NCBI RefSeq assembly: GCF_044324785.1
Contig: NZ_CP172127.1
Reading direction: 5' to 3' (one strand)
Source of the DNA: Escherichia coli
Lineage (GTDB): Bacteria; Pseudomonadota; Gammaproteobacteria; Enterobacterales; Enterobacteriaceae
DNA length: 64,000 bases
Of the stretch, positions 45,646-52,149 are shown piece after piece. Made by a program: the position numbers and the translations under genes. The stretch's first letter is position 1, and every line of letters starts with the position of its first letter. The notes below the pieces were generated by a model that did no database searches, was not told the origin of the DNA, and worked only from the letters and a program-made list of their open reading frames with translations.

Positions 45646-46407
45646 ATGCCCGATCAAACACAACAATTTTCGTTCAAGGTGCTCACCATCAATATTCACA
45701 AAGGCTTTACCGCGTTTAACCGACGCTTCATTTTGCCGGAACTTCGCGACGCCGTGCGTACCGTCAGCGCCGATATTGTTTGCCTGCAGGAAGTGATGGG
45801 CGCGCACGAAGTTCATCCGCTGCATGTGGAAAACTGGCCCGATACTTCGCACTACGAGTTTCTCGCCGACACTATGTGGAGCGATTTTGCCTATGGTCGC
45901 AATGCCGTATACCCGGAAGGGCATCACGGTAACGCGGTTCTTTCACGTTATCCCATTGAACATTATGAGAATCGTGATGTTTCGGTCGATGGTGCGGAAA
46001 AGCGCGGCGTGCTCTACTGCCGCATTGTGCCGCCGATGACCGGGAAAGCGATTCATGTGATGTGTGTACATCTGGGCCTGCGTGAGGCGCACCGTCAGGC
46101 GCAGCTTGCGATGCTCGCCGAATGGGTGAATGAGCTGCCGGACGGCGAACCGGTATTGGTGGCGGGTGATTTCAACGACTGGCGGCAAAAAGCTAATCAT
46201 CCGTTAAAAGTGCAGGCCGGGCTGGATGAGATATTTACCCGCGCCCACGGACGCCCGGCGCGCACGTTTCCGGTGCAATTTCCTCTACTACGACTGGACA
46301 GGATCTACGTCAAAAATGCCAGCGCCAGCGCGCCAACCGCGTTGCCGCTGCGGACATGGCGACACCTTTCTGATCATGCCCCTTTAAGTGCGGAGATTCA
46401 TTTATGA
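45646..46407 (+). CDS. ybhP: Endonuclease/exonuclease/phosphatase-family protein
   Basis: 253 aa recognised as YbhP. ATGA overlap with clsB. Confidence 0.9.
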
Positions 46408-47645
46408 AATGTAGCTGGCGCGAAGGCAATAAGATCCAGTTGCTGGAAAACGGCGAGCAATATTATCCCGCGGTGTTTAAGGCGATTGGCGAGGCACAAG
46501 AACGCATCATTCTTGAAACGTTTATCTGGTTTGAGGATGACGTCGGCAAACAGCTGCATGCGGCGCTACTGGCAGCAGCGCAACGCGGGGTAAAAGCGGA
46601 AGTCTTGCTGGATGGCTACGGTTCGCCGGATCTCAGCGATGAGTTTGTCAATGAACTGACGGCAGCTGGCGTGGTGTTCCGCTACTACGATCCCCGCCCT
46701 CGCCTTTTTGGTATGCGCACCAATGTGTTTCGCCGGATGCATCGCAAAATTGTGGTGATCGACGCGCGTATTGCCTTTATTGGCGGGTTGAACTACTCCG
46801 CCGAGCATATGTCCAGCTACGGTCCGGAGGCTAAACAGGATTACGCGGTACGCCTCGAAGGGCCGATTGTCGAAGATATTCTCCAGTTTGAGCTGGAAAA
46901 CTTGCCAGGACAAAGCGCGGCACGACGCTGGTGGCGACGTCATCATAAAGCGGAAGAAAATCGCCAGCCGGGAGAAGCGCAGGTATTGCTGGTCTGGCGC
47001 GATAACGAAGAACATCGCGATGATATCGAACGCCACTATCTGAAAATGCTCACTCAGGCGCGGCGGGAAGTGATTATCGCCAACGCCTACTTCTTCCCCG
47101 GCTATCGATTTTTACACGCCTTGCGTAAAGCGGCACGGCGCGGGGTGCGGATCAAACTGATCATTCAGGGCGAACCGGATATGCCGATTGTCAGAGTCGG
47201 TGCACGCTTGCTGTATAACTATCTGGTTAAAGGCGGCGTTCAGGTGTTTGAGTACCGCCGCCGTCCGCTACATGGCAAAGTGGCATTGATGGACGATCAC
47301 TGGGCGACGGTAGGGTCCAGTAATCTCGATCCGCTCAGTTTGTCACTGAATCTCGAAGCAAATGTCATCATCCACGATCGTCATTTTAACCAGACGCTGC
47401 GTGATAATCTGAACGGCATTATCGCCGCAGACTGCCAGCAGGTGGATGAAACCATGCTGCCCAAACGCACCTGGTGGAATCTGACCAAAAGCGTGCTGGC
47501 GTTCCACTTTTTACGCCACTTCCCGGCGCTGGTCGGCTGGCTTCCGGCACACACACCACGTCTGGCGCAGGTTGACCCGCCCGCTCAGCCGACAATGGAA
47601 ACGCAGGATCGGGTAGAAACTGAAAACACGGGGGTAAAACCCTGA
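46404..47645 (+). CDS. clsB: Cardiolipin synthase B (PLD superfamily)
   Basis: Two HKD motifs ([22 protein letters not shown]). Recognised as YbhO/ClsB. Confidence 0.92.
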
Positions 47646-48601
47646 TGAGTAAATCACACCCGCGCTGGCGCTTAGCAAAGAAGATCCTCACCTGGCTGTT
47701 TTTTATCGCGGTGATTGTGTTGCTGGTGGTCTACGCCAAAAAGGTGGACTGGGAAGAGGTCTGGAAGGTCATCCGCGACTACAATCGCGTTGCGCTGCTT
47801 AGTGCGGTCGGGCTGGTGGTCGTCAGTTATCTGATTTACGGCTGCTATGACCTGCTCGCCCGCTTTTACTGCGGTCACAAACTGGCGAAGCGCCAGGTGA
47901 TGCTGGTGTCGTTTATCTGCTACGCCTTCAACCTGACGCTCAGTACCTGGGTCGGCGGCATTGGTATGCGCTATCGTTTGTACTCCCGGCTAGGGTTACC
48001 GGGCAGCACCATTACGCGGATTTTCTCGCTGAGTATTACCACCAACTGGCTGGGCTATATTTTACTGGCGGGGATTATCTTTACCGCGGGCGTGGTGGAG
48101 CTGCCGGATCACTGGTATGTCGATCAAACTACACTGCGTATTCTCGGCATTGGCTTATTGATGATTATCGCGGTTTATTTGTGGTTTTGCGCTTTCGCGA
48201 AGCACCGCCATATGACCATCAAAGGGCAAAAACTGGTGCTGCCTTCATGGAAATTTGCCCTCGCCCAGATGCTGATTTCCAGCGTTAACTGGATGGTAAT
48301 GGGAGCGATTATCTGGCTGTTACTCGGTCAAAGCGTAAACTATTTCTTTGTACTGGGTGTGTTGCTGGTTAGTAGCATTGCTGGCGTCATCGTGCATATT
48401 CCGGCGGGAATTGGTGTGCTGGAAGCGGTATTTATCGCGCTACTGGCTGGGGAGCATACCTCCAAAGGCACAATTATCGCCGCCCTGCTCGCTTACCGTG
48501 TGCTGTATTACTTTATCCCACTGCTGCTGGCGCTGATCTGTTACCTGCTACTGGAAAGTCAGGCGAAGAAGCTACGGGCGAAAAATGAAGCGGCGATGTG
48601 A
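47645..48601 (+). CDS. ybhN: UPF0104/LPG-synthase-TM-like inner-membrane protein
   Basis: 318-aa polytopic protein recognised as YbhN. Third gene of the ybhP-clsB-ybhN operon. Confidence 0.9.
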   Translation: MSKSHPRWRLAKKILTWLFFIAVIVLLVVYAKKVDWEEVWKVIRDYNRVALLSAVGLVVVSYLIYGCYDLLARFYCGHKLAKRQVMLVSFICYAFNLTLSTWVGGIGMRYRLYSRLGLPGSTITRIFSLSITTNWLGYILLAGIIFTAGVVELPDHWYVDQTTLRILGIGLLMIIAVYLWFCAFAKHRHMTIKGQKLVLPSWKFALAQMLISSVNWMVMGAIIWLLLGQSVNYFFVLGVLLVSSIAGVIVHIPAGIGVLEAVFIALLAGEHTSKGTIIAALLAYRVLYYFIPLLLALICYLLLESQAKKLRAKNEAAM

Positions 48602-48636
48602 AGTTTAGTTAAGTTCTTTAGTATGTGCATTTACGA

Positions 48637-49050
48637 CTAATGAAAAAAACGCGTATGCCTTTGCCAGACAAGCGTTATCGCTATTGCTGCAAGAATCCCA
48701 AAGAAGCCGATAAAATAGTAATAGAGTGTTAATGCACCTGTAACAGCGCAACGAACCGGACTCCACAATTCTTCGCTATGGCATTTTCCTGCCAGTTCAA
48801 GGAGCTTATTTCGTCCATGCGAGATAATGCCTGACCATAAAACAATCATTAAGCAACTTATTACCCAAATGGGCCGTTCACTCATTAATGCGGCATTCAC
48901 GATGATCACCAGGGCCAACCCTGTCAACGTCATCATAATGATAAAACGGTGAGAACCAGGATCAACATTAAATAATAAACCGGCCAGCATACTGATTAAA
49001 AACATCGCGCCCGCAGTGCTGAACACAAGGATAATGGCAGATACAGGAAG
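48637..49050 (-). pseudogene. ybhM: ybhM, C-terminal 137 codons, separated from its 5' part by an IS insertion
   Basis: (L)PVSAIILVFSTAGAMFLISMLAGLLFNVDPG...VWQRHTRFFH continues the BAX-inhibitor-1-family frame begun at 51113. The ORF-track N-terminus MGSLARQDGEQS is read-through from the IS end. Confidence 0.8.
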
Positions 49051-49240
49051 TGACTGCTCCCCGTCCTGTCGGGCGAGGCTTCCCACTTCTTAAGCCGCAA
49101 CCGTCTGTGTGACGGATTTATGCTGGCCTCCATGGGCAGAAACGACGAGTCCCGCCGCTTGTAATTCCAGTATGCCCTTGCGTTTGATGTTGAGCGCCGC
49201 GTTGATATCGCGGTCATGTTCAACTCCACACTCTGGACAC
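49035..49240 (-). ncRNA. Predicted TnpB omega-RNA (reRNA): a scaffold overlapping the tnpB 3' end and RE, plus a 16-nt guide read from the flank (49050..49035)
   Basis: Inferred purely from the established TnpB/omega-RNA architecture. The 5' boundary is a guess. The guide would be CUUCCUGUAUCUGCCA. Confidence 0.4.
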
Positions 49241-50259
49241 TGCCAGATGCGCTTACGTAATGGCATCTCCGACATTTTGTGACCGCAGCAGTGGCAGGTT
49301 TTCGAACTGGCGAACCATTGATCCAGTTTCACCAGATGCACACCTTTCTCTGCTGCTTTATATTCCAGTTTTGTGATGAATCCAGACCATCCAGCATCGC
49401 CTATCGCACGAGCCAGATGGTGATTTTTCATCATATTTGCCGTTTTCAATTTCTCGACAATTACCGCTTGGTTTTCGTCAACAATTGCGCGAGATAACTT
49501 GTGCTGGAAATCGGCACGGGCACTGGCTACCCGTTCGTGAACGGCTGCAAGTTGTATTCTGGCTTTGCGCCTGTTTGCGCTCCCTTTTTTCTTACGGGAC
49601 AGTGCTTTCTGCTTCCGGCGCAGGTTGCGACTTGCATTGATTAGGTGGCGGGGACTGGCAATTTTATTGCCGTCCGATTTGATGACAAAATGCGCCAGCC
49701 CCATATCCAGCCCTGTCACATTTGATATCAGTGCGGGCTTTGCCGGCGCTTCCATCCCGTCGTCACAGAGTAACGACGCGTAGTATTTCCCGGTTGCGCT
49801 GCGGCTCAACGTGATACTTTTCAGCATTCCCGTAATTTCACGATGTAAACGCGCTTCAATCGGCAAGATTTTCGGTATTTTTATCGCACCATCAAGGACT
49901 TTTATGCCAACACAATGATAGCTCGATTGTCTGCCGTGTTTACTTTTAAAGGTAGGTTTACCTGCTTTCAGTTTCGGATTGAAAAAGTTAGAAAAAGCCA
50001 CGTCGAGGTTAATTACCGCCTGCTGCAACGCAATAGAATCATATTCTTTAAGCCATCCATACCGGCGGGATTTCTTCGCCACTGCAAGCAGTGGTTTGAG
50101 GTCTTTACGCGGGTTTAAATTTACGCGGTGCCGCTGGTAAGAATGTTTCTTGATATGCAGAGCTTTGTTGTACGCAAAACGCACTGCACCGAACTGGGCG
50201 TTGATAAATTCAGCCTGTTCTGGTGTCGGGTAGATGCGTACTTTTGTTGCTCTTAACAT
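49090..50259 (-). CDS. tnpB: TnpB (IS605 OrfB-family RNA-guided RuvC nuclease), 389 aa
   Basis: RuvC-I GLDMGL, RuvC-II VIVEKL, RuvC-III HDRDINAALNI and zinc finger CHCCG...CPECG are all present, with no frameshift. Confidence 0.9.
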   Translation of the reverse strand: MLRATKVRIYPTPEQAEFINAQFGAVRFAYNKALHIKKHSYQRHRVNLNPRKDLKPLLAVAKKSRRYGWLKEYDSIALQQAVINLDVAFSNFFNPKLKAGKPTFKSKHGRQSSYHCVGIKVLDGAIKIPKILPIEARLHREITGMLKSITLSRSATGKYYASLLCDDGMEAPAKPALISNVTGLDMGLAHFVIKSDGNKIASPRHLINASRNLRRKQKALSRKKKGSANRRKARIQLAAVHERVASARADFQHKLSRAIVDENQAVIVEKLKTANMMKNHHLARAIGDAGWSGFITKLEYKAAEKGVHLVKLDQWFASSKTCHCCGHKMSEMPLRKRIWQCPECGVEHDRDINAALNIKRKGILELQAAGLVVSAHGGQHKSVTQTVAA

Positions 50260-50315
50260 AATCAGCGCTCATTGATATAATGCTTTTATTTTAACACTTT
50301 AGGTGAATATATCAA

Positions 50316-50741
50316 TTGAGTAATCATGATGATTTACTGGCGGGATTTCTCCGCAAACGACACAGTGTCAGTAAGCTGGTTGTGCACCTTATTTTTACGA
50401 CAAAGTATCGACGCAAACTATTCGACAGTCAGATGATCGCTCAGTTGCGTGAGGCTTTTGGCTCCGCTGCGGCAAAGCTTGAATGCGAAATTATTGAGAT
50501 GGACGGGGAGCCAGACCATGTACACCTGCTGGTGGCCTACCCGCCAAAACTGGCGGTCAGTGTGATGGTCAATAATTTAAAATCGGTATCATCACGTTTG
50601 CTACGCCAGCAGAACGCGCATTTACGTATGCAGAGTAAAACGGGGCTTTTGTGGTCGAGATCGTACTTTGTCTGTAGCACCGGAGGGGCAACGATTGAAA
50701 CGCTCAGAGCCTACGTTCAGAGTCAGTCAACACCTGATTGA
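50316..50741 (+). CDS. tnpA: IS200/IS605-family Y1 (HUH) transposase TnpA, 141 aa with TTG start
   Basis: HUH motif DHVHLLV and C-terminal catalytic Tyr context TLRAYVQSQ. AGGTGA lies 7 nt before the TTG. The hairpin AAAGCCC-tgc-GGGCTTT plus T-run (50747..50764) follows the stop. Confidence 0.85.
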   Translation: MSNHDDLLAGFLRKRHSVSKLVVHLIFTTKYRRKLFDSQMIAQLREAFGSAAAKLECEIIEMDGEPDHVHLLVAYPPKLAVSVMVNNLKSVSSRLLRQQNAHLRMQSKTGLLWSRSYFVCSTGGATIETLRAYVQSQSTPD

Positions 50742-50813
50742 TCTTTAAAGCCCTGCGGGCTTTTCGCCTTATATCCCCGCCCGCATTGGGCGAGGGTTTA
50801 CGGCGTTTTTCGC

Positions 50814-51113
50814 TAAACTTGCAACGACAATCGCCACCAAAGAGAGTAAAAACAGATATATTACGCCTGCGATGGCGGCATTTATCTTGTTGATATCCTT
50901 ACTTAAGCCATACATACAAAGTAATAATAACCCTATGGCGACATACATTGGTGGTGAATCATATTTGGTTGCCGTAATTTCGAGATACTTAGCTCCCCAG
51001 GCCAGTCCTGCGGTTGCCACCAAACCTAAAGCGGTAATGAGCCATATACCGTTTAATATCCTGGCCTCGTGCTGAAAATCTAATTTATTGCTGTTTTGCG
51101 AGTATGATTCCAT
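50814..51113 (-). pseudogene. ybhM: ybhM, N-terminal 100 codons
   Basis: MESYSQNSNKLDFQHEARILNGIWLITALGLVATAGLAWGAKY...IVVASL, after which the frame runs into the IS left end (AKNAVNPRPMRAGI*). Confidence 0.8.
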
Positions 51114-51318
51114 TCTTTTAGTTGTCCTTAGAAAAAACATTAATATTTACCATCAATAAATTTAAAGCCACGCATACAAAATACTTTTTTATTTATGGAT
51201 ACGGAAAACGCTTCCGCTCGCTCATAAGGCATATTTTATACCTGGTACTTGTTAAGTGTCGTTTTTTCGTAAGAAAAAATCCCGACACATGGCCGGGATA
51301 TTGATGGTGAAAAAAGAA

Positions 51319-52023
51319 TTAACGGCGGTTGCCGAAGATCCGCAGCAACATCAGGAACAGGTTGATGAAGTCCAGATACAAGGTTAACGCGCCAAGAATG
51401 GAATATTTGCGCAGGTTCGACGTGTCGCGGGTATCAATCTGCTCACCCATATTTTTCAGTTTCTGCGTGTCATACGCCGTCAATCCGACAAAGACAATCA
51501 CGCCGATGTAGGTGACTGCCCACATCAATGCTTCGCTTTTCAGCCAGAAGTTGACCAACGATGCCAGCACAATGCCGATTAACGCCATAAACAGCATATT
51601 GCCAAAGCCGCTTAGATCGCGCTTCGTGGTGTAACCGTACAGGCTCATTGCGCCAAACATCCCGGCAGTAACGACGAAAGTACTGGCGATAGAAGCAGCG
51701 GTATAGACAATGAAAATACTGGAAAGCGTAAGACCCGTCAGCGCCGAATAAAGCATAAAGAGCATCGTCGTCACACCTGCGCTCAGCTTTTGAATCATCG
51801 CTGATAACACAATAACCAATGCTAATTGCGCGATGATCAGACCGATTAAAAAGACACGGTTAGTGAACAACAGCTCCATCACGGCCGCGGAATTAGCCGC
51901 ATACCAGGCAACAAATGCGGTCAGCAACAAGCCAACGGTCATCCAGCCATAGACTTGCGCCATATAAGTTTGCAAGCCAGCCCGGGGTTGTACAATTGAA
52001 TCAGAACGTGGGAATCTGTCCAT
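51319..52023 (-). CDS. ybhL: BAX-inhibitor-1/YccA-family inner-membrane protein (234 aa)
   Basis: MDRFPRSDSIVQPRAGLQTYMAQVYGWMTVGLLLTAF... recognised as YbhL. Start trimmed from 52104. Confidence 0.9.
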   Translation of the reverse strand: MDRFPRSDSIVQPRAGLQTYMAQVYGWMTVGLLLTAFVAWYAANSAAVMELLFTNRVFLIGLIIAQLALVIVLSAMIQKLSAGVTTMLFMLYSALTGLTLSSIFIVYTAASIASTFVVTAGMFGAMSLYGYTTKRDLSGFGNMLFMALIGIVLASLVNFWLKSEALMWAVTYIGVIVFVGLTAYDTQKLKNMGEQIDTRDTSNLRKYSILGALTLYLDFINLFLMLLRIFGNRR

Positions 52024-52122
52024 GATGATCTCCTGAAGATATAAGGAATATCTTAAGGATACTGCAAAATGATGAGGCTGTGCATCGACGCAGCGTAAAC
52101 GCATGTACTGAGCGGTGAAATT

Positions 52123-52149
52123 GCCGGACGCAGCGGTGCCTTATCCGGC
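52123..52149. repeat. REP (repetitive extragenic palindrome) unit
   Basis: GCCGGACGCAGCGGTGCCTTATCCGGC resembles the GCCGGATG...CTTATCCGGC REP consensus. It lies between ybhL and moaE. Confidence 0.55.

Follow-up and report, generated by a model that had tools for sequence, protein, structure and literature searches.

The window analysed here, a stretch of 64,000 nucleotides of Escherichia coli DNA, contains the gene ybhM, whose product is a membrane protein of the Bax-inhibitor-1/YccA family, and which has been inactivated by a block of 1,763 bp inserted between the first and the second base of codon 101. This block carries two divergent genes, tnpA, coding for a Y1/HUH transposase, and tnpB, coding for a predicted RNA-guided nuclease, and is bounded by subterminal hairpins that lie on a single strand (Table 1). 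We consider with great confidence that it is an intact copy of ISEc46, an element of the IS200/IS605 family and of the IS605 type, whose active or "top" strand corresponds to the minus strand of the window, where the order is the left end (LE), the inverted tnpA, tnpB and the right end (RE).

Table 1. Positions in the window of ISEc46, its genes, its terminal signals and its predicted RNA
Feature	Positions	Strand	Content and basis
ISEc46, whole element	49050..50812	-	1,763 bp; ends from empty sites, insertion sites and relatives
Target tetranucleotide 5'-TTAG-3' (C_L, predicted TAM)	50813..50816	-	flanking DNA, outside the element
ybhM 3' fragment	48637..49049	-	gene nt 302-714; alignment to annotated ybhM in L003, L002
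ybhM 5' fragment	50813..51113	-	gene nt 1-301; alignment to annotated ybhM
tnpB	49090..50259	-	389 aa, predicted RNA-guided nuclease; Pfam, NCBIfam, phmmer to ISDra2 TnpB
tnpA	50316..50741	+	141 aa, Y1/HUH transposase, TTG start; Pfam, NCBIfam, IS608 alignment
Divergent promoter region	50253..50315	.	consensus scan; spans the 56-bp tnpB-tnpA spacer 50260-50315
Left-end hairpin IP_L	50775..50795	-	CCTCGCCC, loop AATGC, GGGCGGGG; DNA fold; conserved in relatives
LE spacer	50796..50812	-	17 nt, CGAAAAACGCCGTAAAC; ends in AAAC
Predicted left guide G_L	50799-50796	-	AAAC; analogy to IS608; complementary at position 4 to TTAG
Second LE hairpin	50747..50763	.	AAAGCCC-TGC-GGGCTTT; folds; directly after the tnpA stop codon
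Right-end hairpin IP_R	49059..49078	-	CCTCGCCC, loop GACA, GGACGGGG
Predicted right guide G_R	49079..49082	-	GAAG; conserved GGGAAG 5' of IP_R in relatives; analogy to IS608
Right cleavage tetranucleotide C_R	49050..49053	-	TCAC; the 4 terminal bases at RE, 9 nt away from the foot of IP_R
Predicted ωRNA scaffold	49050..49160	-	111 nt; covers the final 71 nt of tnpB plus RE (40 nt)
ωRNA stem 1	49160-49153 with 49147-49140	-	RNAalifold model
ωRNA stem 2	49136-49132 with 49086-49082	-	RNAalifold model
ωRNA stem 3	49128-49122 with 49098-49093, plus 49115-49111 with 49105-49101	-	RNAalifold model
ωRNA stem 4 (IP_R)	49059..49078	-	RNAalifold model
Candidate pseudoknot	49151-49148 with 49055-49052	-	GACU with AGUC; ISDra2-like
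Predicted ωRNA guide	49030..49049	-	UUCCUGUAUCUGCCAUUAUC; 16-20 nt of ybhM flank 3' of RE; from ISDra2

The insertion in ybhM and its ends

Three lines of evidence fix the ends of the element: empty ybhM sites, 4-5 independent insertion sites, and the point at which similarity stops in ~50 relatives. In the uninterrupted ybhM alleles of L003 and L002, against which the interruption of the gene first seen in the window's own sequence is clearly visible, the site reads ...CAGGAAC|TAAACT..., and in the window it reads ...CAGGAA[G TGACTG...TTTTTCG]CTAAACT...; on the minus strand this corresponds to an empty site GTTTAG|TTCCTG and a filled site GTTTAG[IS]TTCCTG. All copies carry base 49050 (G) as part of the element; base 50813 (C) is part of the target TTAG, which occurs once in the empty sites. 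The proposed absence of a target duplication was borne out. The sequence-only reading had placed the ends at 49051..50813, and had stated that ends lying elsewhere would speak against it; the empty sites and all copies displace them by 1 nt at unchanged length, which contradicts that reading in its letter, not in its substance. TTAG adjoins LE at 5 ISEc46 insertion sites and at ~23 junctions of relatives, the sequence further upstream being divergent, and at the other extreme RE ends in ...GTCAC| at the insertion sites and at the relatives' junctions, the similarity among the ~50 relatives ceasing right after GTCAC.

The name of the element comes from PGAP, as the TnpA of the window does not differ (100% identity) from WP_000064874.1, a protein that bears the PGAP name "IS200/IS605-like element ISEc46 family transposase". 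Copies at >=99% identity are present in 444 complete-genome E. coli records, in which PGAP annotates an ISEc46 family transposase and TnpB, and along all of its 1,763 bp the window copy has a DNA identity of 99.3-99.7% with those in L001, L002 and L004. Since another strain carries an IS1F inserted in ybhM, the gene is seemingly dispensable. The ISEc46 insertion in ybhM occurs in none of 5,426 complete E. coli genomes, a full-coverage match in AST215 having been discarded because the IS lies there between ybhL and moaE, but an exact-protein look-up located it in draft assemblies. In the assembly GCA_040038515.1 the element forms a chimera, with ptrB next to LE and ybhM next to RE, which might derive from an inversion mediated by the IS.

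Terminal signals and the transposase

ISEc46 lacks inverted terminal repeats, its ends reading CGAAAA... and ...AGTCAC, and instead possesses, on the minus strand, subterminal imperfect palindromes of the form CCTCGCCC-loop-GGGCGGGG at both ends. That CCTCGCCC is common to both hairpins had already been noticed in the sequence, and is sustained by the DNA fold and by the relatives; as for their distances from the ends, the 17 nt given for the left hairpin stand, and the 6 nt given for the right one must be replaced by 9 nt (AGCAGTCAC). The stem of IP_L has 8 bp, among them one T.G pair. In IP_R the window copy bears a C.A mismatch caused by 49064T, a position that is C in L001, L002 and L004 and whose pair is C-G in 36 of the 39 relatives; among the 508 places compared in complete genomes of E. 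coli, none matches window 49050-49115 exactly, and the single-sequence fold of the RE hairpin as DNA is not significant (z = -0.9). The second LE hairpin, a feature described for IS608, ISDra2 and IS605 (PMC5934647), could act on the plus strand in the manner of a terminator for tnpA, terminator-like sites in a pattern scan being no more frequent than chance.

In IS608 the tetranucleotides that guide cleavage and those that are cleaved are G_L AAAG / C_L TTAC and G_R GAAT / C_R TCAA (PMC5934647; PMC3201880). According to this pattern, the tetranucleotides located 5' of each hairpin of ISEc46 are predicted to recognise its cleavage sites; the sets of the two elements differ at position 4 only, and at both ends the change is complementary. 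The cumulative GC skew of the window plus strand is negative (-0.33), and for this reason the minus, active strand is the G-rich one and the template of the lagging strand, where the active strand is expected in the IS200/IS605 family (PMC8612924). The placement of ISEc46 is consistent with this rule, as a single locus that agrees with it and does not prove it.

TnpA matches the Pfam Y1_Tnp profile at 121 of 121 positions (E=6e-39) and the NCBIfam model transpos_IS200, and in the alignment with IS608 TnpA its H68/H70/Y133/Q137 are in register with H64/H66/Y127/Q131. HVHLLV and RAYVQSQ, which had been read as the HUH and Tyr motifs of a Y1 transposase, are thus what they seemed, and tnpA and tnpB were found to be free of frameshifts, as had been said, the TTG start of tnpA being also that of the PGAP annotation. 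In the relatives the corresponding codon is likewise TTG or GTG, and a truncated or frameshifted tnpA was rejected, given that the open reading frame started by TTG spans the whole Pfam profile and that this start is kept as TTG or GTG. The description of the ISEc46 Y1 transposase as "truncated in the N terminal" (PMC9956272) is probably due to this conserved non-ATG start. Between the two genes, a consensus scan gave a plus-strand match, TTAACA-17-TATAAT (11 of 12 consensus bases, extended -10 TG), whose -35 hexamer starts at 50253 inside tnpB, and a minus-strand match, TTGATA-16-TAAAAT (10 of 12, extended -10 TG); both are predicted promoters in the sense of pattern matches.

Taken together, the hairpins on one strand, the insertion 3' of a fixed tetranucleotide, the lack of a target duplication and the active-site residues in register agree with the IS605-type architecture originally suggested, and bring ISEc46 close to IS608 of Helicobacter pylori, with which it shares the catalytic residues of a Y1/HUH TnpA, subterminal hairpins on one strand, the absence of target duplication, guide and cleavage tetranucleotides that are equal at 3 of 4 positions, an ATAT/ATAC motif 3' of IP_L, and the second LE hairpin. 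The hairpin spacings are similar (LE 17 nt in ISEc46 and 19 nt in IS608, RE 9 and 10 nt), whereas the target and C_R differ, TTAG and TCAC in ISEc46 against TTAC and TCAA in IS608; tnpA is inverted relative to tnpB in ISEc46, which is the IS605 layout, while the genes of IS608 are co-directional. The relationship between the two transposases is distant, as their alignment only reaches E=3.5e-20.

TnpB and the changes private to this copy

TnpB, with the N-terminal WED/REC region and the zinc-finger (TNB) domain of its class, matches the Pfam families HTH_OrfB_IS605, OrfB_IS605 and Cas12f1-like_TNB, exceeds the cut-off of NCBIfam guided_TnpB (341 bits against 100), and is homologous in a phmmer comparison to the TnpB of ISDra2 (8bf8/8exa/8h1j) over residues 4-380, with E=6e-75. 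In the latter, D191/E278/D361 are catalytic and C331/C334/C351/C354 bind zinc (PMC10097598); D185/E269/D351 and C322/C325/C341/C344 of the window protein align with them, and consequently GLDMG, VIVEKL, HDRDINAA and the CxxC...CxxC pairs, which had been picked out by eye as catalytic and zinc residues, are in register in this alignment. Intact motifs are nevertheless no guarantee of nuclease activity, because in one interference assay (10.1101/2023.03.14.532601) the TnpB of IS608, which belongs to the family, showed no activity. In the main text of open-access papers we found no experiments on the TnpA or TnpB of ISEc46; most of the papers listed there for the element are surveys of resistance genomics in which it is just one entry, and among those that also name TnpB, PMC9956272 alone discusses it.

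Compared with the copies of L001, L002 and L004, that of the window has four private substitutions (49064, 49256, 49360 and 49451), which give rise to the mismatch of the RE hairpin and to the changes T270K and H335R in TnpB. The protein therefore bears K270 and R335, as well as H380, which derives from 49121 and is R in L001 and L002, L004 having the base of the window. The change T270K adjoins the catalytic Glu, at a position occupied by Thr in all 77 TnpB copies from other loci that were compared. Either this change or the mismatch in the RE hairpin could lower activity.

It could be supposed, then, that this copy, intact in its structure, is already in decay, and that 49064T or T270K immobilised it or killed its nuclease, leaving a relic fixed in this lineage. 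This supposition draws on the loss of a C-G pair that nearly all relatives keep and on a base at 49064 absent from the 508 places in complete genomes, on the replacement of an otherwise invariant Thr, and on the history of the insertion itself: it is common, unchanged, to at least 21 assemblies, and the median number of ISEc46 copies in the E. coli genomes that bear the element is 1, most carriers thus having a single copy, which suggests a low rate of transposition. However, L085 contains, after a TTAG in a prophage, a copy that is identical at 1763 of 1763 positions, 49064T and K270 included; as this TTAG is not that of ybhM, the variant must have transposed after having gained both changes. 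Moreover, position 270 seems to tolerate change, because after the catalytic Glu the active TnpB of ISDra2 has His, and a designed nuclease that is likewise active has Asp. The decay of this copy is for these reasons rather unlikely, and the second site points instead to the recent mobility of this exact variant.

The predicted ωRNA and the biology of the element

The last 111 nt of the element, which take in the 3' terminus of tnpB together with RE, constitute a structured, covariation-supported predicted ωRNA that ends at the transposon boundary (numbered backwards from the RE end, -1 being 49050). In the RNAalifold model obtained from 39 relatives there are 31 pairs, with 97% of cells paired as against 35-56% in slid controls, and compensatory changes occur at 19 of the 31 pairs as against 2-7 in those controls, values that none of 500 shuffles reached. 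The minimum free energy fold of the single sequence gives the same helices, although by itself it is not significant (z = -1.5), and the positions of the helices map onto the ωRNA scaffold of ISDra2 (PMC10097598). Covariation lends no support to the candidate pseudoknot, whose columns either do not vary or are broken in 5-6 sequences, and a long-range pairing proposed by RNAalifold (columns 59-62/256-259) was dropped, as it shows no compensatory changes and clashes with the ISDra2-like pseudoknot. An Rfam scan of 48500-51400 gave no match at E<=1, whereby the ωRNA of this TnpB subfamily would not belong to a curated family, which is not evidence against an RNA.

Given that the covariation test is blind to the difference between RNA and single-stranded DNA of the top strand, that helix 6 corresponds to IP_R, a hairpin bound by TnpA in the form of DNA, and that Rfam offers no match for these 111 nt, the structure could alternatively be an extended right end, a single-stranded DNA signal for TnpA and no ωRNA at all. 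This is improbable, since the TnpA of IS608 requires just the segment G_R-IP_R-C_R, of ~45 nt (PMC3201880), while helices 1-5 are situated further inside the coding sequence of tnpB, at positions that match those of stems 1-3 in the ISDra2 ωRNA solved by cryo-EM, the partner of a TnpB to which that of the window is homologous.

The ωRNA reading leads to a predicted guide. In ISDra2 the guide consists of ~16 nt of the flank that follows RE (PMC8612924), and the equivalent flank here is that of ybhM; joined to TTAG, this guide sequence reproduces the empty ybhM site, without any difference over 20 nt in L002 and with one polymorphism in L003, and no further occurrence of the guide was found within the window. 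With a guide taken from the ybhM flank and a predicted TAM TTAG, the nuclease would be directed against the unoccupied site in ybhM. The likeness to ISDra2 of Deinococcus radiodurans covers a TnpB homologous over its full length, with the D-E-D triad and the four Cys in register, and a scaffold of 111 nt against 116 nt in ISDra2, in which stems 1-4 and the candidate pseudoknot occupy corresponding places, a tetraloop falling at -21..-18 in ISEc46 and at -20..-17 in ISDra2. The elements differ in the predicted TAM, TTAG (4 nt) as against TTGAT (5 nt), and in tnpA, divergent in ISEc46 but overlapping and co-directional in ISDra2; furthermore, the TnpB-ωRNA of ISDra2 is a characterised OMEGA nuclease, whereas the nuclease activity of ISEc46 is a predicted one.

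Exaptations of TnpB of the TldR type are known in enterobacteria, and it might be asked whether this TnpB is one of these domesticated, nuclease-independent regulators. Nothing specific speaks in favor of this, and it is very improbable, as the RuvC triad and the zinc finger are intact, tnpB sits in a mobile element with tnpA and both ends, with flanks that vary between copies, and the guide region is whichever flank is found at the landing site. Finally, that the block might be another catalogued E. coli IS, as in the hedged guess of IS609 made in the sequence-only reading, has practically no probability left: the IS609 of K-12 (yncK/insQ), whose tnpA is a pseudogene, belongs to the same family, is of similar size (1,748 bp) and has its two genes divergently arranged, but its InsQ is only 28% identical to the TnpB of the window, and RefSeq assigns the identical TnpA to the ISEc46 family.

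Transposition in the IS200/IS605 family and the homing of TnpB-ωRNA have been established from IS608, ISDra2 and Geobacillus elements, and by analogy we infer for ISEc46 the activities of its transposase and its nuclease, the TAM TTAG and homing. When the minus, top strand became single-stranded at the replication fork, TnpA would bind its two subterminal hairpins, and would locate the cleavage sites by the pairing of G_L AAAC with C_L TTAG and of G_R GAAG with C_R TCAC. The top strand would then be excised as a single-stranded circle and the donor resealed without a scar, with a predicted ybhM joint TTAG|TTCC (...GCAAGTTTAG|TTCCTGTATC...), and the circle would be reinserted 3' of another TTAG, without target duplication. 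In turn, the tnpB mRNA would give rise to the 111-nt ωRNA scaffold, followed by a guide from the ybhM flank, and TnpB-ωRNA would cut TTAG followed by TTCCTGTATCTGCCAT..., which is the empty donor joint, so that recombination with the sister chromosome after the cut would restore ISEc46.

The ISEc46 of this locus is an ordinary and well-understood element, already known and catalogued, copies of which the NCBI pipeline annotates routinely, and the finding has little weight beyond correct annotation. To this annotation it contributes the base-exact ends, the TTAG target as predicted TAM, the guide and cleavage tetranucleotides and the conserved non-ATG start of tnpA, together with a covariation-supported ωRNA model for a TnpB subfamily without an Rfam family, which is useful for annotating or testing TnpB. 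A more specific proposal can be put forward tentatively, and we give it slightly less than an even chance: that, in a living lineage of E. coli, the sub-variant with T270K and the mismatched RE is self-homing and at present mobile, with an active TnpB, a 4-nt TTAG TAM and a 111-nt ωRNA. If so, it would represent a native, compact and E. coli-compatible RNA-guided nuclease, so far uncharacterised.

Identity, genes and ends of the element

By RefSeq naming, the block that interrupts ybhM is ISEc46, the copies being labelled by PGAP as 'IS200/IS605-like element ISEc46 family transposase' and 'RNA-guided endonuclease InsQ/TnpB family protein', and the TnpA of the window being identical to WP_000064874.1. 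The name IS609, tentatively offered in the sequence-only reading, is excluded, as the InsQ of the K-12 IS609 (1,748 bp, yncK pseudogene plus insQ) is 28% identical to the window TnpB. Both open reading frames are unbroken, as had been claimed, and lie 56 bp apart; the 389-aa product carries the Pfam domains HTH_OrfB_IS605, OrfB_IS605 and Cas12f1-like_TNB and matches NCBIfam guided_TnpB (341 bits, cut-off 100), and the 141-aa product covers the whole 121-position profile of Pfam Y1_Tnp and matches NCBIfam transpos_IS200 (141 bits, cut-off 55). In every respect that can be tested on sequence, the element belongs to the IS200/IS605 family. By megablast, the block is present in 605 of 5,426 complete E. 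coli genomes, with copies of at least 99% identity in 444 records; genomes that have the element hold a median of one copy.

The ends were compared over four independent insertion sites, namely ybhM in the window and, at three other E. coli loci, an IclR-family regulator gene (L001), the ybhL-moaE spacer (L002) and the yebE-ptrB spacer (L004). At all four, G precedes TGACTG... at the left and CTAA follows ...TTTTTCG at the right; the uninterrupted ybhM alleles read CAGGAAC/TAAACT, and BLAST places the break between window positions 49049 and 50813. On this comparison, 49050..50812 (1,763 bp) is the sole parsing that needs no extra mutation, and on the minus strand the element sits between 5'-GTTTAG and TTCCTG-3'. 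The length proposed earlier thus holds, the true position being shifted leftward by one base, and zero bases are duplicated at ybhM, again as proposed. A second disruption of this gene, by an IS1F-family element, is found in E. coli 042 (H34/H37; NZ_CP042934.2, NZ_LR595691.1), so at least two lineages tolerate a broken ybhM.

Relatives of the TnpB (63–91% identity; scan of one genome per species) occur at 80 loci in Photorhabdus, Serratia, Rahnella, Aeromonas, Vibrio, Halomonas/Vreelandella, Idiomarina and other genera. The right end in about 50 of the 80 reads GAAGTGGGAAG-CCTCGCC(loop)GGCGGGG-AGCAGTCAC, similarity ending directly after GTCAC; the left end, in 28 junctions, reads TTAG/CRAAA...GCCGTAAAC-CCTCGCCC(loop)GGGCGGGG-ATATAAGG, with a flank 5' of TTAG that is unrelated from locus to locus, and several contigs end precisely at these junction points. 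Both ends of ISEc46 are, in these alignments, confirmed by the relatives. At eight loci (L049, L052, L064, L067, L070, L076, L077 and L080) the left-end hairpin and TTAG (~1386–1414 of each locus) lie only ~90–115 nt upstream of tnpB, which leaves no room for tnpA; these are tnpB-only derivatives of the same family that have kept both ends. Photorhabdus genomes hold many copies of such relatives (L014–L022, L032 and other loci), P. akhurstii DSM 15138 alone accounting for 8 loci, against the median of one in E. coli. An 88% identical TnpB with the same ends lies on a 3.3-kb contig (L006, JAHEOE010000054.1) of a metagenome-assembled genome labelled Candidatus Paceibacterota, probably through mis-binning of an enterobacterial contig and not because the host is a true CPR bacterium.

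Features of the window copy of ISEc46 and of its predicted guide RNA (window coordinates; stems numbered from the right end, -1 = 49050)
Feature	Position	Strand	Remark or ISDra2 counterpart
tnpB ORF, 389 aa	49090-50259	minus	
tnpA ORF, 141 aa	50316-50741	plus	divergent from tnpB
Left subterminal hairpin, IP_L	50795-50775	minus	17 nt from element end
Right subterminal hairpin, IP_R	49078-49059	minus	9 nt from element end
Predicted guides		minus	5' of hairpins: AAAC (left), GAAG (right)
Cleavage tetranucleotides		minus	TTAG (left, in flank), TCAC (right, last four element bases)
Predicted stem 1	-111..-104 with -98..-91		-116..-111 with -91..-86
Predicted stem 2	-87..-83 with -37..-33		-84..-81 with -35..-32
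Predicted stem 3	-79..-73 with -49..-44, plus -66..-62 with -56..-52		3a -77..-71 with -48..-42; 3b apical
Predicted stem 4 (= IP_R)	-29..-22 with -17..-10, tetraloop -21..-18		tetraloop -20..-17

Predicted single-strand transposition and TnpB nuclease activity

In IS608 the guides (left AAAG, right GAAT) find the cleavage sites (left TTAC, right TCAA) through base pairing, with spacings of 19 nt at the left and 10 nt at the right (PMC5934647; PMC3201880). The tetranucleotides of ISEc46 differ from these in the fourth position alone, and the change is complementary at both ends (left, C:G in IS608 to G:C; right, A:T to C:G), which independently supports both the ends and an IS608-type mechanism. 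Of the hairpin offsets estimated earlier, the left one stands and the right one, put at 6 nt, is corrected by measurement. The HUH motif and catalytic Tyr recognized in the sequence-only reading also align with IS608 TnpA (H68, H70, Y133 and Q137 with H64, H66, Y127 and Q131). GC skew on the plus strand is negative across most of the window, which makes the active minus strand the template for lagging-strand synthesis, in keeping with what is expected of the IS200/IS605 family (PMC8612924). Transposition would work as it does in IS608.

The tnpA start is TTG (50316–50318), 9 nt past AGGTGA and identical to the PGAP start; in relatives L005–L079 the codon at this position is TTG in the closest, GTG in the distant, and never ATG, and may represent a conserved weak initiation that holds the transposase level low. 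A survey describes the ISEc46 Y1 transposase as 'truncated in the N terminal' (PMC9956272); since the Pfam profile is matched over its full length, that statement most likely arose from ORF calling that allowed only ATG starts.

With regard to TnpB, phmmer against PDB sequences matched ISDra2 TnpB (8bf8, 8exa, 8h1j) at E=6e-75 over residues 4–380. The D-E-D register proposed earlier is borne out, D185, E269 and D351 falling on D191, E278 and D361, as is the zinc finger, C322, C325, C341 and C344 falling on the zinc ligands C331, C334, C351 and C354. In ISDra2 the catalytic centre and zinc ligands are defined by a cryo-EM structure (PMC10097598), and either D191A or E278A abolishes activity (PMC8612924). 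The ISEc46 nuclease would act as ISDra2 TnpB does.

Predicted guide RNA (ωRNA) and its target

The 240 nt that run up to the right end were aligned for 39 non-redundant relatives, and RNAalifold predicted helices in the final 111 nt. The fixed structure of 31 pairs was tested against partners slid by 1–3 columns and against 500 shuffles: 97.0% of cells form standard pairs, against 35–56% for slid partners; 19 pairs show compensatory double changes, against 2–7; and none of the 500 shuffles attains any measure of the structure, which is specific to the tnpB-sense strand, since several pairs are predominantly G.U. The window sequence alone folds into the same helices (energy z-score -1.5, not significant by itself), and no matching Rfam family was found for the region. 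A candidate pseudoknot, in which GACU of the stem-1 loop (-102..-99) would pair with AGUC (-6..-3), is analogous to that of ISDra2 (-105..-103 with -5..-3); covariation is neutral here, as these columns hardly vary.

A promoter-like TTGTCA-16-TAAAAT inside tnpB (49661–49688, minus, 10/12), a pattern match only, lies ~500 nt upstream of the scaffold. A terminator-like hairpin with a T-run in the ybhM flank (49005–49028, minus), 22 nt past the right end, could terminate read-through transcripts soon after the guide, although such sites are no commoner in the region than chance would give.

The motif that TnpB requires beside its target (the TAM) coincides with the one at which TnpA inserts, and ~16 nt of flanking sequence beyond the right end serve as the guide (PMC8612924; 10.1101/2023.03.14.532601); the window copy is therefore predicted to use TTAG with the ybhM-derived guide UUCCUGUAUCUGCCAU(UAUC). 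The predicted target, TTAG+TTCCTGTATCTGCCAT, matches base for base the ybhM site that stands uninterrupted in L002, and has no other occurrence in the window. This arrangement would correspond to donor-joint homing as in ISDra2 and Geobacillus elements.

Private changes and recent history of the variant

Four private substitutions separate the window copy from the three other copies. One, 49064T, lies in the stem of the right hairpin and makes C.A of a pair that is C-G in 36 of 39 relatives; of the 508 places in complete genomes, none matches 49050–49115 exactly. Another places Lys at TnpB 270 (codon 49450–49452; VIVEKL), directly after catalytic E269, where all 77 TnpB copies found in other fetched loci (three E. 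coli ISEc46 loci and the 80 relatives' loci) have Thr and ISDra2 has His; Lys is confined to window-type copies. TnpB further carries R335 and H380, the latter shared with L004. The hairpin mismatch and the TnpB substitutions could reduce activity.

An exact-protein look-up nevertheless placed the same protein on many contigs. The draft locus L086 is 100% identical over 7,170 bp, ybhM insertion included, with 20 similar places besides, so a whole draft-assembly lineage carries this insertion. The ybhM/ybhL flanks (48102–49049, 50813–52148) are 100% identical in the draft assembly GCA_014185105.1 but reach only 96–98% identity with the complete E. coli genomes used for comparison, and thus the lineage is not represented among complete RefSeq genomes. 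In a second draft (L085, GCA_048598525.1, 2444–4210) a copy identical at 1763/1763 positions, hairpin mismatch and K270 included, follows TTAG in a lambdoid prophage region (hok/gef, RusA, antiterminator Q); because this site is a different one, the variant has transposed since acquiring its private changes, evidence of recent movement. A third draft (L087, GCA_040038515.1, 2444–7170 = window 46090–50816) holds a chimeric copy, with the yebE-ptrB site as left flank (as in L004), ybhM as right flank, and L004-type alleles at the SNPs near the left end (50534 and 50686); unless the contig is mis-assembled, the pattern points to homologous recombination of one ISEc46 copy with another, and so to a large inversion or rearrangement.

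The TnpB is a candidate nuclease with a TTAG TAM, and T270K and the hairpin mismatch may matter for this copy; the ISEc46 copy in ybhM has no categorically new feature.
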